Both the position numbers and the translations under genes were made by a program. The notes under the pieces are model-generated. The model saw nothing but the letters and a program-made list of their open reading frames with translations, was not told the DNA's origin and ran no database searches. A stretch of 64,000 nt of DNA, from sequence record OY720014. One strand, written 5' to 3'. Positions 3,327 through 64,000 of the stretch are shown here, one piece after another (position 1 is the stretch's first letter; every line of letters begins with the position of its first letter). Source of the stretch: Escherichia phage vB_Eco_QOTSP.

Positions 3327-5099
3327 TTAATTAACCCCAGTCGCATCAAATACACCAGGAGCAGTTGTGCTTGTGACAGGTGTCATATTATGAACGACAG
3401 TATTTTTCTTAATAACATTATTAGTATTGTTGATTGAAGGAGATGCTTGTTGAACAGGAGCTTGCTGTGCTTTGTTCTTTTCTATTACCTGGACTTGTTT
3501 TGCTTCTGGCGATTTAGCAGAAGTTTCAGGTTTGGCATTAGGCTGATTTTTCTTGAGCTCTTGATAAGTAGCATCAATTTTAGAAAATCTAGCAGCAAGT
3601 TCTTTTTTAACTGCCGGTGAATTATTTAAATCCGGGTCATCCATCCGTTTTTTAAGGTCTTCATAGGCAGATTCAACAGATTTAACCGTTGAGTCTTTAC
3701 TCATATCAGCTGAATCAGCATATTTTTCAAAGCGAATCATTGCGGCACGGGCTTCATTAGCCTTCATTAAAGCATTTTTTCTTTCTTCAGGTGAAAGTTG
3801 CTTTAATTTTTCTTCTTCTGCTGCACGTTCTTCGTCGGTAGTTAGTGCTTCTTTATTATCAACCCCACGAATCCAATTAGATGCACGAGTTTTCCAATTA
3901 GCAATTTTATCTAATCCTTTTGCTATCGGACCAAGGTCTCCGTTCATTCGTTTATCTTGATAATTTGCAACTTTTTCCTGGTCTTCTTTATTGAGAGATG
4001 CTCCAGTAGAATTTTGGAAATTTTCTAATGCTCTTCCTTCTACTTCATCAGCAGTGTCTTTCATGCCAGGAATGACTCGAAGAATTGCAGCAGATAATTT
4101 AGCCATACCTAATTGAATAAGTTCTCCTAAATTATAAAGAACCTTTCCAAGCCCTTCAACAATAGCTACTGTCAATCCACCCCAATCTCCCGCTTCCCAG
4201 AACTTTTTAATTTCATCAATAGAACTAAAGATGCTCTGTAATAAAGGACCCCAAGTTCCGGTTTCGCTAGAGAATTTAGTAAAGTCAGTATTAAATAAAT
4301 CCCAGGCTTTTGAAAATTTATCTGACCAGTATTTAAAATGAACCATCAACAGGTCTATTCCAACAACAACAGCCAATATCATTGCAGTCATTTTAGCAGC
4401 TTCAATAGCAGCACTGACGGTGTACTTAAATAGCATGCTTGATATTTTATCAGTAATTGAAATGGATTTTTTAAATCCAAAATCAACAGTCTTCGTTAAT
4501 TTATCTAAAGCTTGAGATAATTTTAAGTTAAATGCTTCTTTTTTCTGTTTTTCTTCTGGCGATTCTTGTTTGGGTTCAACTGGCTGAGGGGTAGGGAAAA
4601 AATCAGCGTCAGGATCATTATTAACTGCTTCAGGGGCCGGTAATAAAGGACCCACAGATTCAGCAGTATCATCCTCAACGACTTTAACAGGAATAGCGCT
4701 TTCAACTGTGGCTAAACTAGTTCCAGTCTGTTGAATTCCAGCTGTCTGGATTTTTTGCTCTAGTAAACTTGTTAATTTATCTAATTTGCTCCCGAGTGAT
4801 TCACCGATTTCTTTATTAATATTGTTGCCAATTTCGACAGTTTCAGCAATTAACTCAGAACCGGCAGTAGTATCACTCACTGCTCTTTCTACGTTGTCAA
4901 TTGCTCCAATTATTTCATTCGATTTTTCTTCGACAGTTTGAGCAATTAACTCAGAAGCAGCTTGAGCATCATCCAATTTCGTAGATATATCGTTAAGTCC
5001 AGATAAAGTGTTGGAAGCGGATTTAGCCGCTTCCTGTGTTGGTTTATTATCTGAAATAACTTTTCTACGCATCGTTTGCATTTCTTGTGGCTTTTTCAT
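3327..5099 (-). CDS. 29: tail tape measure protein gp29
   Basis: 590 aa, position between 28 and 48; low-complexity extended protein. Confidence 0.85.
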   Translation of the reverse strand: MKKPQEMQTMRRKVISDNKPTQEAAKSASNTLSGLNDISTKLDDAQAASELIAQTVEEKSNEIIGAIDNVERAVSDTTAGSELIAETVEIGNNINKEIGESLGSKLDKLTSLLEQKIQTAGIQQTGTSLATVESAIPVKVVEDDTAESVGPLLPAPEAVNNDPDADFFPTPQPVEPKQESPEEKQKKEAFNLKLSQALDKLTKTVDFGFKKSISITDKISSMLFKYTVSAAIEAAKMTAMILAVVVGIDLLMVHFKYWSDKFSKAWDLFNTDFTKFSSETGTWGPLLQSIFSSIDEIKKFWEAGDWGGLTVAIVEGLGKVLYNLGELIQLGMAKLSAAILRVIPGMKDTADEVEGRALENFQNSTGASLNKEDQEKVANYQDKRMNGDLGPIAKGLDKIANWKTRASNWIRGVDNKEALTTDEERAAEEEKLKQLSPEERKNALMKANEARAAMIRFEKYADSADMSKDSTVKSVESAYEDLKKRMDDPDLNNSPAVKKELAARFSKIDATYQELKKNQPNAKPETSAKSPEAKQVQVIEKNKAQQAPVQQASPSINNTNNVIKKNTVVHNMTPVTSTTAPGVFDATGVN

Positions 5100-5629
5100 T
5101 CAAATAATCCAATAATATTACCAATTCCAGTTATTGGACCATTAGGGCCAGGAATTGCTAAAGTTGTAAAAATATCATTTGCCCATTTTAAAACGAATGC
5201 TGGCATCTCAAGAAAATTAATTTCTTTAACTTCATCATTGACCTTAAGCAAGCATTTGGATAACATATCGCTCACCGTTAAAAATTGTTCAAATTTTCCA
5301 GGAGGTCTAAAATAAAATGTATTTCCTTGGTATTGAAATTCTAATCTTTGGCATACATAAACATCATTAATGTCATAAGTATAACCATCTATTTCTTTAC
5401 GAGATTTAATCTTTCCATTAAATTCCAATAAATGAATGGAAACGAAATCAACTTCTGCTGGTGATAAATTCGGGCAAATAGAATCAATAAGAAGTTTTAA
5501 ATTTTCATCAGGACCTTTAACATCTTTTAAAATGTTATAATGTTTAAGACCCATTTTAGGAATAGAAACTTCTTTATTGCTTATTGGAAGAACTACTTTC
5601 TTCAGTGGTAGTATCAGATTTAAATTCAT
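5096..5629 (-). CDS. 28: baseplate hub distal subunit gp28
   Basis: 177 aa ORF overlapping 3' end of gene 27 as in T4; start not verified. Confidence 0.75.
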
Positions 5630-6749
5630 TTTTAACCTTAACTGGGTCTATTGTTTCCAGTTTCGTTGCATTAGTGAACATATATAGATGAGTTACTGAA
5701 TTATTATTGGATAATTCATGGATGACTTCATCAACGTAAAATTCTGTTTTAAATTGGTTTTTACTATCATTAAAAATAATTTTAACTCCAGGAGTCAAGT
5801 TAAAATTACCGACAGTAGAACATTTAGCGTAACCATCATACTGCGCCATAGTCTGAAGACGAATAGCTTCTTCATAGCCATTCCTATAAGTCATTTCAGA
5901 ATAAGCACCTGACCTTGACACTACAATAGAGTTTTCACCCTTTCCTGTAGTAATCATTGGCAATGAAGAATCCAAAAACGAATGCGCATAGATAGTAGCG
6001 TTTTTCATTGGGTCACGTTTGTGAGGATTCGATTTAGTCAACCAAACGAAATCATATGCTAATGGATATTTCAATTCTTGGACGAATTGACCTATTAAAG
6101 ATGGCTCACCGACAATCATTGGATATGGTTCTTGATTTATCATCATATCATAGTCCATCATGTTAACTCCCATGATGTCTTGCCACACAAATACAAATTT
6201 GTCACTTCCTACCGCTAGAGCAACTTCTCTTACATATGACAAATAGTTTTCAAATGTGCTAGTCCATGGAATATCAGGAACATAAGCATTTATAGCATTT
6301 ATTGCTGGAGTTAATAATGTGCGATCTTGATAAATGACACCAAGCATTTCTTTTATAGATTCACCTGCATCAGGGAAAAATGGTCTACCAAATTTAAGAT
6401 TTTCTATAGAATGAATAGTTCCCAATTCAATAGCAATGATGTTATCACCTTTTGAATCTACTGACACAGAAAAATGCTTGCATCCATAAATTCGTGTTTT
6501 AACATTATTAATATCGTTTGCATTAGCTACAGAAATCTGAATTATTTCATTTCCATCCATTTTTGTGTGGATATTTTTAGAATCATAAAACTGCAGCATT
6601 CCTTCATTTCGTCCATAAAGAGAATCCCGCATAGTTAATGTGGTAATAGTAGCAGCTAATTCAACAAATCTATTATTACTCCAAGCGTCGTAGCTATCAA
6701 ATAATTTAACGCTGAGATTTGGATATCCGGGGCGTTGCAACATACTCAT
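5574..6749 (-). CDS. 27: baseplate hub subunit gp27
   Basis: 391 aa, T4 synteny and length. Confidence 0.85.
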
Positions 6750-7498
6750 TATTGTTTATCCTTCTCAATCAGTTTTAATACGAATCCGCGCTCGGCAGGA
6801 ATCATTTTCATTATTGAATTTAAGCTATAATTACTTTTTACGAGTGCGTGATTAATTTGATAAAAAGTAAATATTTCATCTGGGTTAACTAATAGCTTAA
6901 ACACATCTACTATATCAGTGTATTTTTTAATGTACTTATTACAGCATGACATATGTAGAGTTAAATTAATAGGATTCATTGCATCGAGAATTTTTTCTAA
7001 TGTTTCTATCTCGATGGCATCAACAAGTTCTATTTGGCTTGATTCACTAATTTCCTTCCAATCATACCATATTTCATCTACTTGAACAGAATGAATATTT
7101 TCAGTAATCATCTTTGCTTTATTTTCATAAAACTCAGAAGGAAACTTTAATTTAATTTTAACATTAGCTACATCAAAAACAGGTTCCTTTAATTCTTTTT
7201 GATATATTTCAAATGGAACTGTCTTTTCTTTTTTACATTTTGGACATACAAATGTGACGGGTACTTTAGTTTTACCTATTGAACCTACAAATACCTGCAA
7301 AAATATAAATGGTTGCCAAGTCTTCGGATAGTCTCCAAAATAATCATCAATTAAATCAGTAATTATTTCTTTTTGTTCTTGTGGTGACCGATGTTCTATA
7401 TCGTTTCGAACTAACAAAAAATCTCGATAATCTTCTACCGTAAATGGTTTAAAACGATGAACACCATCTGGTAATTTACAACGAATAATGTTTGCCAT
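6749..7498 (-). CDS. 51: baseplate hub assembly catalyst gp51
   Basis: 249 aa, divergent from gene 26, CxxC pairs. Confidence 0.85.
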
Positions 7499-11346: not shown

Positions 11347-12027
11347 ATGATAGATAAAGATTATATTGCAGAGCTGAAGGCTCTTGATGATAACAAAGAA
11401 GCTAAAGCTAAATTAGCTGAATATGCTGAACAGTTTGGTATAAAGGTCAAAAAGAATAAATCTTTTGATAATATCGTTGTTGATATTGAAGAAGCTCTCC
11501 AGAAGCTCGCTAGTGAACCTATGCCAGAGACTGATGGGTTATCTATTAAAGACTTAATTGATGCTGCTGATGCTGCAGAGGGATTAAAATATGACGATGA
11601 AGAAGTCAATCCAGAAGCAGCACTTTTGATTGATTCTCCAGTTAAATCTGACATTAAAATTGAAGTAGTAGAAACGGATAAAATTCCTGAAAATACCGAT
11701 GTTTTGATTGAAGATACTCCTTTTGTTGAAGAAAAATTCGAACAGGCTGTAGCTGAGATTATTGAATCTGAAAAGCCGTCTGTATTTACTCTTCCGGAAA
11801 ACTTTAGCCCGAATCTTCAGTTGATTGGAAAAAATCCAGGATTCTGTACTGTTCCTTGGTGGATTTATCAATGGATCGCTGAAACTCCGGATTGGAAATC
11901 TCACCCAACTAGTTTTGAGCATGCTTCTGCACACCAAACATTATTTAGCTTAATTTATTACATTAACCGTGACGGATCAGTTTTAATTCGTGAAACACGC
12001 AATTCTTCTTTCGTAACATTAAAATAA
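11347..12027 (+). CDS. inh: Inh, inhibitor of prohead protease (by position and size)
   Basis: 226 aa ORF immediately upstream of hoc. Confidence 0.65.
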   Translation: MIDKDYIAELKALDDNKEAKAKLAEYAEQFGIKVKKNKSFDNIVVDIEEALQKLASEPMPETDGLSIKDLIDAADAAEGLKYDDEEVNPEAALLIDSPVKSDIKIEVVETDKIPENTDVLIEDTPFVEEKFEQAVAEIIESEKPSVFTLPENFSPNLQLIGKNPGFCTVPWWIYQWIAETPDWKSHPTSFEHASAHQTLFSLIYYINRDGSVLIRETRNSSFVTLK

Positions 12028-12036
12028 GGATAACTT

Positions 12037-13455
12037 ATGGCTTTTACAGTTGATATAACTCCTAAAACACCTACTGGAGTTATAGATCAGACTCAGCAGT
12101 TTACTGCTACGCCCAGTGGTCAAACTGGAGATGGACCTATTACATATGCTTGGACTGTTGATGATGTTCCACAAGATGGGGCTGAAGCAACTTTTAGTTA
12201 TGTACTAAAAGGTCCTGCCGGTCAAAAGACTATTAAGGTAGTTGCAACAAATCCAGTTCCTGATACTGAAGCTGAAACAGCAGAAGCTACTACAACTATC
12301 ACAGTTCAAAATAAGACACAGACGACTACCTTAGCCGTAACTCCTGCTAGTCCTGCGGCTGGAGTGATTGGAACAGCTGTTGAATTTACCGCTGCTTTGG
12401 CTTCGCAGCCATTAGGCGCATCTGCTACGTATCAATGGTACGTTGACGGTTCTCCTGTGAGCGAAGCGACTAGCGCTACATTCAATTACACTCCTGACAC
12501 AAGCGGAGTTAAAACAATTAAGTGTGTGGCTCAAGTAACCGCGACAGATTATGACGCAAAAGAAGTTACTTCTAATGAAGTGTCACTGACTGTTAATAAA
12601 AAGACACAGACAACTACTTTGGCAGTAACTCCCGATAGTCCTGCGGCTGGAGTGATTGGAACCCCAGTTCAATTTACTGCTGCCTTAGCTTCTCAACCTG
12701 ATGGAGCATCTGCTACGTATCAGTGGTATGTAGATGATTCACAAGTTGGTGGAGAAACTAACTCTACATTTAGCTATACTCCAACTACAAGTGGAGTAAA
12801 AAGAATTAAATGCGTAGCCCAAGTAACTGCTGAAAATTACAATGAAAAGGAAGTTACTTCGAATGAAGTATCATTAACAGTTAATAAGAAGACAATGAAT
12901 CCACAGGTTACATTGACTCCTCCTTCTATTAACGTTCAACAAGATGCTTCGGCTACATTTACTGCTAATGTCACTGATGCTCCAGAAGAAGCGCAAATTG
13001 CGTATTCATGGAAGAAAGATTCTTCTCCTGTAGAAGGGTCAACTAATGTATATACCGTTGATACCTCATCTATTGGAAGTCAAACTATTGAAGTTACTGC
13101 AACTGTTACTGCTGCTGATTATGATAGCAAAACTATTACGGCGGAAGGTCAAGTTCAGGTAACTGATAAAGTTGCTCCAGAGCCAGAAGGTGAATTACCT
13201 TATGTTCATCCTCTTCCACATCGTACTTCAGCTTACATCTGGTGTGGTTGGTGGGTTATGGATGAAATCCAAAAAATGACCGAAGAAGGTAAAGATTGGA
13301 AAACTGACGATCCAGATAGTAAGTACTACTTGCATCGTTACACTCTCCAGAAGATGATGAAAGACTATCCAGAAGTTGATGTTCAAGAATCACGTAATGG
13401 ATACATCATTCATAAAACTGCTTTAGAAACTGGTATCATCTATACCTATCCATAA
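12037..13455 (+). CDS. hoc: Hoc, highly immunogenic outer capsid protein with an extra Ig-like domain
   Basis: 472 aa; recognisable Hoc N- and C-termini; internal 288-bp tandem repeat. Confidence 0.9.
   Translation: MAFTVDITPKTPTGVIDQTQQFTATPSGQTGDGPITYAWTVDDVPQDGAEATFSYVLKGPAGQKTIKVVATNPVPDTEAETAEATTTITVQNKTQTTTLAVTPASPAAGVIGTAVEFTAALASQPLGASATYQWYVDGSPVSEATSATFNYTPDTSGVKTIKCVAQVTATDYDAKEVTSNEVSLTVNKKTQTTTLAVTPDSPAAGVIGTPVQFTAALASQPDGASATYQWYVDDSQVGGETNSTFSYTPTTSGVKRIKCVAQVTAENYNEKEVTSNEVSLTVNKKTMNPQVTLTPPSINVQQDASATFTANVTDAPEEAQIAYSWKKDSSPVEGSTNVYTVDTSSIGSQTIEVTATVTAADYDSKTITAEGQVQVTDKVAPEPEGELPYVHPLPHRTSAYIWCGWWVMDEIQKMTEEGKDWKTDDPDSKYYLHRYTLQKMMKDYPEVDVQESRNGYIIHKTALETGIIYTYP
12313..12888 (+). 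repeat. in-frame tandem duplication (2 x 288 bp, about 80% identical) encoding two Ig-like Hoc domains
   Basis: Units begin AAGACACAGAC at 12313 and 12601, each ending in the Lys codons preceding the next unit. Confidence 0.85.
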
Positions 13456-56917: not shown

Positions 56918-57398
56918 TTTTAAAAACTCGCTGGTATGATTTAGATGATGGGGATGATGGCATTTCAGTTGATAGAGTTGACTGGAATGGTTGTTCCGAA
57001 GATATGAAAAATTTGTTGATTAGGGAGTTTAGAATGGGATATCAAGCAGCTAAGCCATCTATTATAACAGATGATAAATTCGTGTGTATTCATAATGGTC
57101 GTGCTAAGTTAACAAATGCTGATTGGTTTACAAATAAGATTATGATTCTGTGGTATATCATTAGTCTTCCTGTGTCATCATTTGTATTTTGCTTCTTTGG
57201 TGAAAGTCCAATAGGCAGAACAGGAGATTGGATTCTTTTAATTATGCTTGTTAATATTTTGACAGCAGCAATATTATCTGGGATATGGTACACGTTCATT
57301 GAAATGCCATGGCGGCTACGCAGACAACAAAAGATTTTTGATGAAAAGAAATACGCTCAAAATTTAAATAACTTTATCACTGAATGCAGGAAATTAAA

Positions 57399-57402
<4 letters not shown>
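56914..57402 (+). CDS. small membrane protein (162 aa), C-terminal FITECRKLK motif
   Basis: TM segments; ATGA overlap with previous gene. Confidence 0.6.
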
Positions 57403-58371
<969 letters not shown>

Positions 58372-60344: not shown

Positions 60345-60707
60345 ATGAAAGCATATCAAATTCTTGAAGGCACACATAAAGGTACTATTTATTTTGAAGA
60401 TGGTATTCAAGCACGAATTATTGTCTCTAAAACCTTTAAAGAGGACTCTTTTGTAGACCCGGAAATTTTCTACGGTTTGCATGCCCGTGAAATTGAAATT
60501 GAAACACAACCTACAGTTAAAATTGAAGGTGGTCAACACCTGAACGTTAACGTTCTGCGTCGCGAAACTCTGGAAGATGCAGTTAAGCATCCGGAAAAAT
60601 ATCCGCAGCTGACCATCCGTGTATCCGGTTATGCAGTTCGCTTTAACTCTCTGACTCCGGAACAGCAGCGCGACGTTATCGCTCGTACCTTTACTGAGAG
60701 TTTGTAA
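60345..60707 (+). CDS. autonomous glycyl radical cofactor (GrcA/YfiD-like; T4 Y06I-type)
   Basis: C-terminal 60 aa matches E. coli GrcA as recalled, including RVSGYAVRF glycyl radical motif; host-like GC in 3' half. Confidence 0.85.
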
Positions 60708-60928
60708 TGGCAAAGATAATTATTGAAGGTTCTAAAGATGTGCTAAATGCTTTCGCCGAGTGGTTTAGTAATTCAGGCGAACAGCAATTTAACGAAGCCT
60801 GGAATATGGGTGATATTGATGGAATTTATCCTACGACAGAAATTTCTGTTCAAGGATATGGCATTCATGAACCTATTCGTTTAGTTGAATATGATTTATG
60901 TACTGGTGAGGAAGTCAAATATGATTGA
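60707..60928 (+). CDS. hypothetical protein (73 aa)
   Basis: ORF. Confidence 0.55.
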   Translation: MAKIIIEGSKDVLNAFAEWFSNSGEQQFNEAWNMGDIDGIYPTTEISVQGYGIHEPIRLVEYDLCTGEEVKYD

Positions 60929-61187
60929 AGATATTAAAGGTTATAAGCCACATACCGACGAAAAAATCGGTAAAGTAAATGCTATTAAAGACGCTGAAGT
61001 TCGTTTAGGACTTATCTTTGATGCTTTATACGATGAATTTTGGGAAGCATTTGATAGCTGTGAAGATGATGAACTCGCGAAGAATTATGCCGAAAGCCTC
61101 GATCAGTTAACTATTGCTAAAACGAAACTCAAAGAAGCCAGTATGTGGGCTTGTCGTGCAGTGTTCCAACCAGAGGAAAAATACTAA
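60921..61187 (+). CDS. hypothetical protein (88 aa); vs.4-position ORF, candidate Acb2-like
   Basis: ATG with GAGGAAG RBS; assignment by synteny only. Confidence 0.45.
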
Positions 61188-61465
61188 TGGCTCAATTAAG
61201 TGCAGGGTTTGGTTATGAGTATTATACTGCACCTCGTCGTGTATCTGCCGCTCCTAAGAAAATTCAAAGTCTTGATGACTTCCAGGAAGTAGTCCGTAAA
61301 GCTTTCCAGGACTATGCACGTTATCTTAAAGAAGATTCACAGGACTGTCTCGAAGAAGATGAAATTGCTTACTATGAGCAGCGTCTTGAACAGCTTAAAA
61401 ACTTACATGAGGTTCGTGCAGAAGTTTCAAAGTCTATGAATAAATTGATTAGATTTAAAGAATAA
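61187..61465 (+). CDS. hypothetical protein (92 aa)
   Basis: ATG with GAGGAAA RBS. Confidence 0.55.
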
Positions 61466-61467
61466 CT

Positions 61468-61497
61468 GTTTACTTTTCCTCTTGACTGTGGTATAAT
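61468..61497 (+). promoter_or_regulatory. early promoter upstream of regB (GTTTAC / TTGACT ... TATAAT)
   Basis: Motifs seen. Confidence 0.6.
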
Positions 61498-61524
61498 TTT
61501 TCTATCAGTTAAGAGGAGAACAAC

Positions 61525-61986
61525 ATGACTATCAATACAGAAGTTTTTATCCGTCGAAATAAGCTTCGTCGTCACTTTGAGTCGGAGTTTCGTCAAATTA
61601 ACAATGAGATTCGTGAGGCATCAAAAGCAGCAGGAGTCTCATCGTTTCATCTAAAATATTCTCAACATCTTCTTGATCGTGCAATTCAACGGGAGATTGA
61701 TGAGACATATGTTTTTGAATTATTCCATAAAATAAAAGACCATGTTTTAGAAGTTAATGAATTCCTGAGTATGCCTCCGCGTCCTGACATTGATGAGGAT
61801 TTTATTGATGGGGTTGAATATCGTCCTGGACGTTTAGAAATCACAGATGGAAATCTTTGGCTTGGATTTACAGTTTGTAAGCCTAATGAGAAGTTCAAAA
61901 ACCCGTCACTTCAATGCAGGATGGCAATTATCAACAGTCGTCGTTTACCAGGAAAGGCTTCTAAAGCAGTAATTAAAACTCAATGA
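61525..61986 (+). CDS. regB: RegB site-specific endoribonuclease
   Basis: 153 aa, recognisable as T4 RegB. Confidence 0.95.
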   Translation: MTINTEVFIRRNKLRRHFESEFRQINNEIREASKAAGVSSFHLKYSQHLLDRAIQREIDETYVFELFHKIKDHVLEVNEFLSMPPRPDIDEDFIDGVEYRPGRLEITDGNLWLGFTVCKPNEKFKNPSLQCRMAIINSRRLPGKASKAVIKTQ

Positions 61987-61993
61987 GGTAAGC

Positions 61994-62539
61994 ATGAGAA
62001 AAGCACTACTCGCTGGTCTATTGGCCATTTCAATGATGGCACATAGCTCCGAGCATACTTTCAGTAATGTCCAACTCGATAACATGCGTTACGCGTATCA
62101 ATTCGGGGAACAATTTTCTAAGGATGGAAAATATAAAACACACAAAAATATCCACAAGAGCGGATTAGGTCATATAATGGCTGCTATTTTATGGCAAGAA
62201 AGCTCTGGCGGAGTTAATTTAAAATCTAAACCAAAGCATCACGCCTACGGAATGTTCCAAAATTATTTGCCTACTATGCGAGCAAGAGTTAAGGAACTTG
62301 GTTATAATATGACCGATGCTGAAATAAAAAGAATGTTGAATAAACGGTCCAATTCAGCTTCCTGGGCGTACATTGAACTTTCTTATTGGTTAAATATACA
62401 TAAGGGCGATATAAGAAAAGCAATATCCTCTTATAATTCGGGATGGAATGTTAAAGCAGGTTCTAAATATGCTTCTGAAGTCCTAGAAAAGGCTAATTAC
62501 CTTAAAAATAATAAACTTTTGGAAATAGTAAATGACTAA
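61994..62539 (+). CDS. secreted lytic transglycosylase-like protein (vs.1 position)
   Basis: Signal peptide; SLT-like ILWQESSGG motif. Confidence 0.65.
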   Translation: MRKALLAGLLAISMMAHSSEHTFSNVQLDNMRYAYQFGEQFSKDGKYKTHKNIHKSGLGHIMAAILWQESSGGVNLKSKPKHHAYGMFQNYLPTMRARVKELGYNMTDAEIKRMLNKRSNSASWAYIELSYWLNIHKGDIRKAISSYNSGWNVKAGSKYASEVLEKANYLKNNKLLEIVND

Positions 62540-62873
62540 AATTTTGGTTTTATGTATAGGATTAATTTCATTTTCTGCGTTAGCAGATACATCATATACT
62601 GAAATTAGAGAGTATGTAAACCGTACTGCAGCGGATTATTGCGGGAAAAATAAAGCATGCCAAGCTGAATTTGCGCAGAAATTAATATATGCATATAAAG
62701 ACGGAGAAAGAGATAAATCAAGCAGATACAAAAATGATACATTGTTAAAACGATATGCTAAAAAGTGGAATACCTTAGAATGTTCAGTTGCGGAGGAGAA
62801 AGATAAAGCCGCTTGTCATTCAATGGTTGACCGTTTGGTAGATTCTTATAATCGAGGATTGAGTACTAGATGA
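62532..62873 (+). CDS. hypothetical secreted Cys-containing protein (vs position)
   Basis: 113 aa with signal peptide; name by synteny uncertain. Confidence 0.5.
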   Translation: MTKILVLCIGLISFSALADTSYTEIREYVNRTAADYCGKNKACQAEFAQKLIYAYKDGERDKSSRYKNDTLLKRYAKKWNTLECSVAEEKDKAACHSMVDRLVDSYNRGLSTR

Positions 62874-63349
62874 TTGTAAAATATATCAAGGGCGATATTG
62901 TCGCCCTATTTCTTCAAGGTAATATTATTGCGCACGGGTGCAATTGTTTTCATACTATGGGTTCAGGTGTAGCTGGTCAATTAGCAAGAGCCTATCCCAA
63001 AATTTTAGAAATAGATAAAACCACTACTGAGTACGGTTCTCGTGATAAATTAGGCGATATGTCTATTGTTTTTAAACATAAACCTAATGGTTTTGGTATA
63101 TGCTATAACCTGTATACGCAATACGAACCAGGTCCTAATCTTGATTATGGTGCTTTAGTAAACTGCATGATAGAATTAAATCTACAGGCAGAAACCCTTT
63201 TGTTTAAACCAGTAATTTACATTCCACGCATAGGTTGTGGTATTGCTGGCGGCGATTGGGATAAGGTTTCTAAATTAATCGACATGTTTACTCCTGATAT
63301 TGATTTAATAGTGGTGGATTATGAAAGTACATTACCCACATCCGTTTGA
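62870..63349 (+). CDS. macro domain protein (ADP-ribose binding / hydrolase-like)
   Basis: Motifs KGDIVAL...IAHGCNC...MGSGVAGQL and IPRIGCGIAGGDWDKV resemble macro domain signatures. Confidence 0.65.
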   Translation: MIVKYIKGDIVALFLQGNIIAHGCNCFHTMGSGVAGQLARAYPKILEIDKTTTEYGSRDKLGDMSIVFKHKPNGFGICYNLYTQYEPGPNLDYGALVNCMIELNLQAETLLFKPVIYIPRIGCGIAGGDWDKVSKLIDMFTPDIDLIVVDYESTLPTSV

Positions 63350-63533
63350 TCCTAAAAACAAAGTGGAAATTATTCGTCAATGGGAACGCATTTGCCGTAC
63401 TAAATGTCCAATTAATAGTCCACATGATGTAGATAAAGACTACATTGGAACATTCGTTGAATATACCTTTATTGATAAGAAAGGTCGTAAACAACATGTA
63501 GAAGAATATTGCTTAAAGGTTACATGGTTATGA
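63321..63533 (+). CDS. hypothetical protein (70 aa)
   Basis: ORF overlapping previous gene 3' end; start uncertain. Confidence 0.45.
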   Translation: MKVHYPHPFDPKNKVEIIRQWERICRTKCPINSPHDVDKDYIGTFVEYTFIDKKGRKQHVEEYCLKVTWL

Positions 63534-63736
63534 GCCAAACTAGTATTCTTAAAAATGCCCACTGTGAAAAGTGTAAGTGGCCGGTTGTTTTTGCTTTATG
63601 CAACGATGAAATGGCTTGTGATTTCGATTATTGGTGCTATTGTTCTAATAAAGGATGCATCAATCATAAAGGTGAAGGATTTTATTCAGGATTTTATCCT
63701 TATCCTGATTTCGTTAAAGAAGGTAAACCAAAATGA
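63524..63736 (+). CDS. hypothetical Cys-rich protein (about 70 aa)
   Basis: C-x2-C pairs; start at ATG 63524 or 63530. Confidence 0.5.
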   Translation: MVMSQTSILKNAHCEKCKWPVVFALCNDEMACDFDYWCYCSNKGCINHKGEGFYSGFYPYPDFVKEGKPK

Positions 63737-63906
63737 ATAGTTTTGAGTTACAATACGAAGTGTTACGTGAGCTTGATAATTTAATTGAACTCGCTGTTAA
63801 TAAAGGTTTTGCCATTGGAATCGGTCAAAAAGATACTGGTCATTTAACTATGGAAATATTTAAGCAAAAGCGAATTATTTTAAAACTCCTGGAAATTAAT
63901 ATATGA
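63733..63906 (+). CDS. hypothetical protein (57 aa)
   Basis: ATG with AGGTAA RBS. Confidence 0.45.
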   Translation: MNSFELQYEVLRELDNLIELAVNKGFAIGIGQKDTGHLTMEIFKQKRIILKLLEINI

Positions 63907-64000
63907 GTCTGAGTAAAGAACAAAAAGATAAATTGTTTGAGCTTATCCATGAACTTCTAGATGAGCATATAGAAGCAAACACCTTTTATGATGAATACGG
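63903..64000 (+). CDS. hypothetical protein, 5' part (continues beyond window)
   Basis: ATG overlapping previous stop; open to window end. Confidence 0.4.
   Translation, partial: MSLSKEQKDKLFELIHELLDEHIEANTFYDEY

Follow-up and report, generated by a model that had tools for sequence, protein, structure and literature searches.

A Gln-type macrodomain protein at the tk.4 (adfM) locus of a T4-like phage as a probable remover of DarT2-added ADP-ribose

Orthologues of the phage T4 gene tk.4 were matched to the A1pp (macro) domain by Nolan et al. in 2006 (PMC1524935). A function was attached to the gene by HIDEN-SEQ, a November 2025 preprint without peer review, in which a screen of T4 transposon mutants on a DarTG2 host yielded tk.4 as its single significant hit and a clean tk.4 knockout sensitised T4 to DarTG2 (bioRxiv 10.1101/2025.11.20.689424). 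The same study, which has T5 as its DarTG2-sensitive control phage, found that T4 does without tk.4 on plain E. coli K-12 and needs it only in the presence of DarTG2, named the gene adfM (anti-DarT factor Macrodomain), and held that removal of ADP-ribose from DNA by the enzyme "seems likely", without demonstrating it (bioRxiv 10.1101/2025.11.20.689424). T4 deprived of both adfA and adfN is still fully DarTG2-resistant (PMC11825919). For T2, proteomics has revealed the Tk.4 protein, and contact between the tk.4 mRNA and the host sRNA ArcZ is reported in a preprint. The macro domain of this gene (2006) and its action against DarTG2 (2025) are thus both on record, and the finding as such is correct but already known.

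Three further sets of macrodomain proteins bear on this gene. The first is typified by SCO6735 of Streptomyces coelicolor, which is an efficient hydrolase of the thymidine-ADPr that DarT makes on DNA, surpasses DarG in speed, and rescues E. coli from DarT; its Gln85 is essential, the Q85A mutant being inactive, and an extended mobile loop together with Lys34 and Lys89 has been tied to its high activity on, and handling of, DNA (PMC9411070). The second is gp104 of phage PhiKZ, likewise named AdfM, in a 2026 Cell Rep paper according to which no macrodomain Adf had been reported before, the T4 preprint being the earlier of the two (PMC13309987). The third is Adpp, a phage macro protein whose gene lies in extended NARP1 operons, flanked by Adps and Namat. 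According to a January 2026 preprint, the aRES NAD+ phosphorylase defence produces ADPR-1''P, which purified Adpp converts to ADPR; NARP1-AP does not overcome aRES without Adpp, the phosphatase in turn achieves nothing against aRES without the activity of both NARP1 enzymes, and the H24A and N27A substitutions abolish its function (bioRxiv 10.64898/2026.01.28.702374).

The window analysed here, a stretch of 64,000 nucleotides from Escherichia phage vB_Eco_QOTSP (OY720014), contains an ORF for 159 aa with an ATG start at 62870..63349 on the plus strand, stop codon included, exactly as an earlier note on this DNA had it. Upstream lies vs (62532..62873, plus strand), encoding the valyl-tRNA synthetase modifier with 97.4% identity to T4 Vs, and downstream tk.3 (63321..63533, plus strand), a DUF7202 protein 92.9% identical to T4 Tk.3. 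The vs stop and the ORF start overlap as ATGA, and tk.3 begins 29 nt ahead of the ORF stop, giving a 29-nt overlap at its 3' end; the ORF is therefore part of a tightly packed same-strand cluster. A Shine-Dalgarno-like GAGGA (62854..62858, plus strand), identical in T4, is situated 11 nt upstream of the ATG within the 3' end of vs. The order regB, vs.1, vs, ORF, tk.3 places the ORF between vs and tk.3, which on comparison of gene orders is the position of tk.4 in T4. Over the surrounding 2.1 kb the identity to Escherichia phage FriedrichMiescher (Bas39, Tequatrovirus teqdroes) is 99.8%, and 742 T4-like records are similar; the window comes from a Bas39-like Tequatrovirus. A promoter scan of 60500-64000 gave no signal (12 sigma-70-like sites against a chance expectation of 13.1), the sole good plus-strand site being at 61469-61497, upstream of regB. 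Codons 7-13 of the ORF contain a perfect GC-rich hairpin with an 8-bp stem, AGGGCGATATTGTCGCCCT (62889-62907), which stands in AT-rich surroundings, is identical in T4 and was flagged on both strands by a terminator scan. The neighbouring vs has no Pfam match and an N-terminus, MTKILVLCIGLISFSALA, that resembles a signal peptide; in T4 it is the gene most strongly depleted in minimal medium (HIDEN-SEQ, bioRxiv 10.1101/2025.11.20.689424). Homology to T4 ends at about 63534, downstream of tk.3, at another mosaic junction. In the window the T4 tk.2/tk.1 region is replaced by an ORF for a phage zinc-binding domain (PF23895, 63509-63736) and by a second ORF without a Pfam match (63733-63906).

The earlier note had called the product a macrodomain protein from its motifs, and profile and structure comparisons uphold the call. 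The Pfam Macro model PF01661 matches with 33.1 bits (gathering score 22; E=6.2e-8) over model positions 2-117, or 116 of its 118 positions, and PHROG 335 matches with E=1.4e-71. An AlphaFold2 model, computed from 55 homologues (mean pLDDT 94.1, pTM 0.89), displays alternating strands and helices in the three-layer alpha/beta/alpha arrangement of the macro fold; the ADP-ribose-binding loops, both rich in Gly, are 31-GSGVAG-36 and 122-GCGIAGG-128. The top Foldseek matches in the PDB were all macrodomains, with TARG1, BT1257, Poa1p and DarG each at probability 1.00 (for TARG1 and Poa1p, E of 7.5e-10 and 4.9e-9, TM about 0.73-0.82 and identity 20-24%). Profile searches of the PDB recovered BT1257 (E=9e-20), TARG1 (1.7e-16), SCO6735 (7e-16), Poa1p (2e-15) and M. 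tuberculosis DarG (8e-12) as the closest relatives, and the protein therefore belongs to the ALC1-like class; the sequence, profile and Foldseek orders agree in favouring this class over the MacroD, PARG and macroH2A types. The MacroD and DarG comparators that had been suggested at the outset are not the closest ones: in its active site the protein follows the Gln type of SCO6735 and Adpp and not the Lys type of DarG. Matches to DarG profiles are weak but specific (NCBIfam E=1.5e-6; PADLOC DarG E=4.2e-7). The NCBIfam DarG equivalog NF048014, whose cut-off is 250, scored 27.8 bits and was covered only at model positions 2-142 of 338; further, the ORF encodes no C-terminal DarT-binding domain and has no adjacent darT, its neighbours being vs and tk.3. 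Of 50,697 phage records searched by tblastn, about 2,770 contain homologues. The surroundings of a bacterial homologue, P0090 of Pelagimonas, were considered as a clue to function and set aside, the neighbours being unrelated housekeeping genes. The ORF is a genuine macrodomain protein, the tk.4 of a T4-like phage.

The motifs that had been read from the translation are all present, namely G8-D9-I10, H22-G-C-N-C26, G31-S-G-V-A-G36 and I121-G-C-G-I-A-G-G128. The first ADP-ribose-binding loop (residues 20-36, IAHGCNCFHTMGSGVAG; 62927..62977, plus strand) contains H22, G23, N25, C26 and G33, which are invariant among the 55 homologues; in alignments His22 and Asn25 correspond to H24 and N27 of Adpp, and Asn25 also to N22 of DarG and N23 of PhiKZ AdfM. 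The second conserved segment, a strand and loop with the sequence NLYTQYEPG (residues 80-88; 63107..63133, plus strand), was delimited by profile alignment to TARG1 and BT1257 and by MAFFT, and has N80, Y82 and Q84 invariant in the same 55 sequences. The third is the second Gly-rich, diphosphate-binding loop (residues 119-130, PRIGCGIAGGDW; 63224..63259, plus strand), which aligns with GCGLDRLQW of TARG1 and in which P119, G122, G124 and W130 are invariant among these homologues. In the profile alignment NLYTQ84 stands opposite YLITK84 of TARG1 and NMIGQ of BT1257, and GCGIA126GG opposite GCGLD125RL, so that Ala126 stands in for Asp125 of TARG1; when the DarG macrodomains were aligned with MAFFT the register was equal, with FPTK against LYTQ. 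Gln84 thus sits where TARG1 (K84) and DarG (K80) have their catalytic lysine, and is equivalent to Gln85 of SCO6735. The protein consequently lacks the lysine and the TARG1 Asp125 of the TARG1/DarG catalytic type, having Gln84 and Ala126 instead, and has the glutamine at the lysine position that distinguishes the SCO6735/BT1257 subclass. A hydrolase directed against DarT2 yet devoid of the lysine has a precedent, since SCO6735 with the identical substitution cleaves ADP-ribose from DNA. The alignments accordingly characterise the T4-type AdfM as a Gln-type macrodomain like SCO6735 and not a Lys-type mimic of DarG. The assignment points to Q84, N25 and H22 as the residues of interest, of which Gln84, by analogy with SCO6735, is probably essential. 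Macro fold, subclass placement, Gln-type site and synteny are direct results of the computations reported here. Net charge or pI was also considered as a discriminator of DNA-acting from small-molecule-acting macrodomains and was rejected, Tk.4 having a pI of 5.25 and the DNA-acting PhiKZ AdfM one of 5.05.

Whether the T4 ORF at the vs/tk.3 position is a macrodomain had been left open by the earlier note; it is. T4 tk.4 (AF158101, 60922..61389) encodes 155 aa, against 159 in the window, and passes Pfam Macro with 27.7 bits. The two have in common the vs - tk.4 - tk.3 locus, the single-domain macro architecture and the invariant H22, N25, N80, Y82, Q84, G122, G124 and W130, and the window ORF is, by position and by sequence homology, the orthologue of T4 AdfM. 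Their identity is nonetheless just 56-57% (57% by BLASTP, E=1e-69), against 100% for Vs.1, 97.4% for Vs and 92.9% for Tk.3, which makes tk.4 a sharp local divergence hot spot between flanks 93-100% identical to T4 (61994-63533). The breakpoint lies inside the gene: the first ~40 residues are near-unchanged, whereas after them the sequences have drifted apart, as in the second Gly loop, which reads IGCGIAGGDW in the window and IGAGIGKGNW in T4. Both alleles are common among GenBank phages: those at least 90% identical to that of the window occur in 318 records and those at least 90% identical to the T4/T2 type in 224. Every residue of the site that is invariant in the family is kept in both alleles.

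Such a hot spot, 56% identity between nearly constant flanks, is a pattern that proteins in contact with variable host partners often show, and could be taken to mean that the tk.4 protein neutralises DarT2 mainly by stoichiometric binding or blocking, as AdfA and AdfB do. Catalytically dead SCO6735 Q85A, DarG K80A and TARG1 K84A indeed inhibit DarT in vitro, SCO6735 most strongly (PMC9411070). We nevertheless regard a binder as quite improbable. The DarG domain that binds DarT is the C-terminal one, and it is missing from this 159-aa single-domain protein; moreover, the residues of the ADP-ribose-binding and catalytic site are all invariant across very distant family members, and an enzyme rather than a mere binder is therefore to be expected.

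The reading that we prefer, at a probability of roughly 0.65, is that tk.4/adfM encodes an orphan Gln-type macrodomain hydrolase that strips DarT2-added ADP-ribose off single-stranded phage DNA. The need of T4 for tk.4 on a DarTG2 host, established in the literature with the T4 allele, makes removal of this ADP-ribose the most likely mechanism. On infection, host DarT2 would ADP-ribosylate thymidines in single-stranded phage DNA and so block replication; the two Gly-rich loops of Tk.4 would bind the ADP-ribose, and its C1''-thymine link would be hydrolysed, free ADP-ribose being released and the DNA template restored. Catalysis would be water-mediated, with Gln84 as the organising residue alongside Asn25 and His22 in the manner proposed for SCO6735, the lysine of DarG and TARG1 not being used. 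As a macrodomain without a DarT-binding C-terminal domain, the product is an "orphan antitoxin". Several observations count against this proposal. The window allele differs from that of T4 at 43-44% of positions, the second Gly loop included; the nearest biochemically characterised protein by sequence, Adpp, is a phosphatase; and the features associated with DNA activity in SCO6735 are missing: by alignment the extended mobile loop is absent, the Tk.4 loop being 6 residues shorter than that of BT1257, and Lys34 and Lys89 have no equivalents, with Ser32 at the Lys34 position. The allele whose function was tested is that of T4; that the window protein shares the anti-DarTG2 function, and that the tk.4 enzyme acts on DNA-ADPr, is inferred. 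About half of the sequenced Tequatrovirus-type alleles, that of the window included, stand at this same distance from the tested one. In favour of the proposal, no Tk.4 family member was found in the DarTG2-sensitive T5 (tblastn best E 0.8 or worse; family HMM nothing at E<=10), and the resistance of T4 without adfA and adfN and the specific, if weak, DarG profile matches point the same way. T5 does encode a Sir2-like NAD-dependent protein, T5.102 (11447-12265).

Other targets had also been suggested in the earlier note. Its proposal that the protein counters host ADP-ribosylating defences is borne out by the genetics of the T4 orthologue on DarTG2, with an allele 56-57% identical to this one, whereas for the countering of ADP-ribose-signalling defences no such role was found. 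It had further raised the regulation of phage-driven ADP-ribosylation, having correctly recognised an Alt-type transferase at the start of the window: the C-terminal part of an Alt-like ADP-ribosyltransferase lies at 13-879 (PF03496, E=5e-21), and the phage also has ModA and ModB, which speaks for a macrodomain that tunes or reverses the modifications made by the phage itself. Alt, ModA and ModB, however, modify arginine, a linkage reversed by ARH/DraG-type enzymes and, to our knowledge, not cleaved by macrodomains; this reading is therefore without support. The alt gene is also some 62 kb from tk.4 in the window, without genomic linkage, and tk.4 was dispensable on plain K-12 and needed only with DarTG2 in HIDEN-SEQ; we consider such a role highly implausible. 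Reversal of mRNA ADP-ribosylation by CmdT was likewise rejected, as the defence of CmdTAC against T4 is robust although that phage has tk.4 (PMC11618068). Some 5 kb upstream of tk.4, at 57384-57839, a NudE Nudix hydrolase is encoded (PF00293, E=7e-13), and ADP-ribose freed by Tk.4 could conceivably be degraded by it.

The alternative that deserves most attention comes from Adpp. The tk.4 ORF is 39% identical over 142 aa to Adpp of Vibrio phage Gary (E=2e-27), which is thereby its closest biochemically characterised relative by sequence and is not a DNA hydrolase. The two belong to PHROG 335 and have the HxCNCF, N-x-Y-x-Q-Y and IGCG-AGGDW motifs in common; the His and Asn essential in Adpp (H24, N27) are H22 and N25 of the ORF, invariant in the tk.4 family. 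Adpp differs in a loop after the Gln that is 7 residues longer, and in having Gln where Tk.4 has Gly after the His. Searches by tblastn with either Adpp or Tk.4 recover essentially one set of about 2,700 phage records, and a neighbour-joining tree, which lacks bootstrap support and conveys coarse grouping only, puts the NARP1-linked protein of Acinetobacter phage phiAbaA1 within the HGCNCF/YTQY clade of Tk.4. Poa1p, a structural relative, is an ADPR-1''P phosphatase as well. The main activity of the tk.4 protein might therefore be Adpp-like, the dephosphorylation to ADP-ribose of ADPR-1''-phosphate made by RES-domain NAD+ phosphorylases such as aRES, with the anti-DarT2 phenotype secondary or specific to the T4 allele. 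Against this, dephosphorylation of ADPR-1''P is common among macrodomains as a side-activity, often a weak one, and the phenotype of the T4 tk.4 knockout is one on DarTG2. Neither Adps nor Namat was found by tblastn (best E 0.76 and 1.8) in the window or in the other 150 kb of Bas39, which between them span the whole chromosome, and the phosphatase alone is ineffective against aRES. In addition, enterobacterial phages are absent from the published table of NARP1-linked macro proteins, which lists none of Escherichia, Klebsiella or Salmonella (bioRxiv 10.64898/2026.01.28.702374). An Adpp-type role can therefore hardly be the main explanation here; we judge a mainly phosphatase function unlikely, and retain the removal of ADP-ribose from DNA as the preferred reading. 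The phosphatase activity itself may well be present in the tk.4 protein.

Elsewhere the operon is intact: in Thalassavirus the arrangement Adps - macro/Adpp - Namat was verified directly (4132-7138 in Vibrio phage Athena), with the macro gene annotated merely as "hypothetical protein". In Felixounavirus wV8 a family member (6860-7333) and Adps (85336-85950) are separated by about 9 kb when counted over the ends of the record, and unlinked genes of this kind may serve NARP1-AP in some phages. With Tk.4 and Adpp in one family, most of the ~2,700 phages that carry it are left without a NARP1-based explanation. A tentative extension, which we hold to be rather unlikely, is that the T4-type AdfM represents one bifunctional Gln-type family that with a single active site both removes ADP-ribose from thymidine, against DarT2, and dephosphorylates ADPR-1''P, against RES enzymes in conjunction with NARP1, the two diverged tk.4 alleles, found in Tequatroviruses that are nearly identical otherwise, being adaptations to different DarT2 variants or substrates. 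If true, this would link two counter-defence stories that have been published separately and would separate the AdfM of T4 from that of PhiKZ by mechanism.

TARG1/OARD1 of humans and Poa1p of yeast are the best structural matches of the tk.4 protein and belong like it to the ALC1-like class, with the Lys84/Asp125 dyad of TARG1 replaced by Gln84/Ala126. SCO6735 and BT1257 resemble it in the site: they too have Gln for the catalytic Lys and lack the TARG1 Asp, and they share the H-x-C-N and IGCGLAGG-W motifs, at ~26% identity, while being bacterial chromosomal and not phage genes. Adpp is closer still in sequence but is encoded in one operon with Adps and Namat, whereas the tk.4 phage has neither gene. 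The DarG2 macrodomain and PhiKZ gp104 have in common with Tk.4 the macro fold, the conserved Asn (N22 and N23, equivalent to N25) and the biological target, DarT2-modified thymidine; unlike Tk.4 they are of the Lys type with an FPTK motif, and DarG has in addition the C-terminal DarT-binding domain that the 159-aa Tk.4 is without. M. tuberculosis DarG matches PhiKZ gp104 (12518-13006) with E=9e-25 and Tk.4 with E=2.4e-5, and in a rough neighbour-joining tree gp104 groups with DarG, far from Tk.4; Tk.4 and gp104 themselves align by BLASTP over a 33-aa segment (E=0.001), with an hhalign probability of 96%. An equation of Tk.4 with PhiKZ AdfM was rejected, the two belonging to different subfamilies. 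The name AdfM thus covers two non-orthologous lineages, and with them independent recruitments of macrodomains against DarT2.
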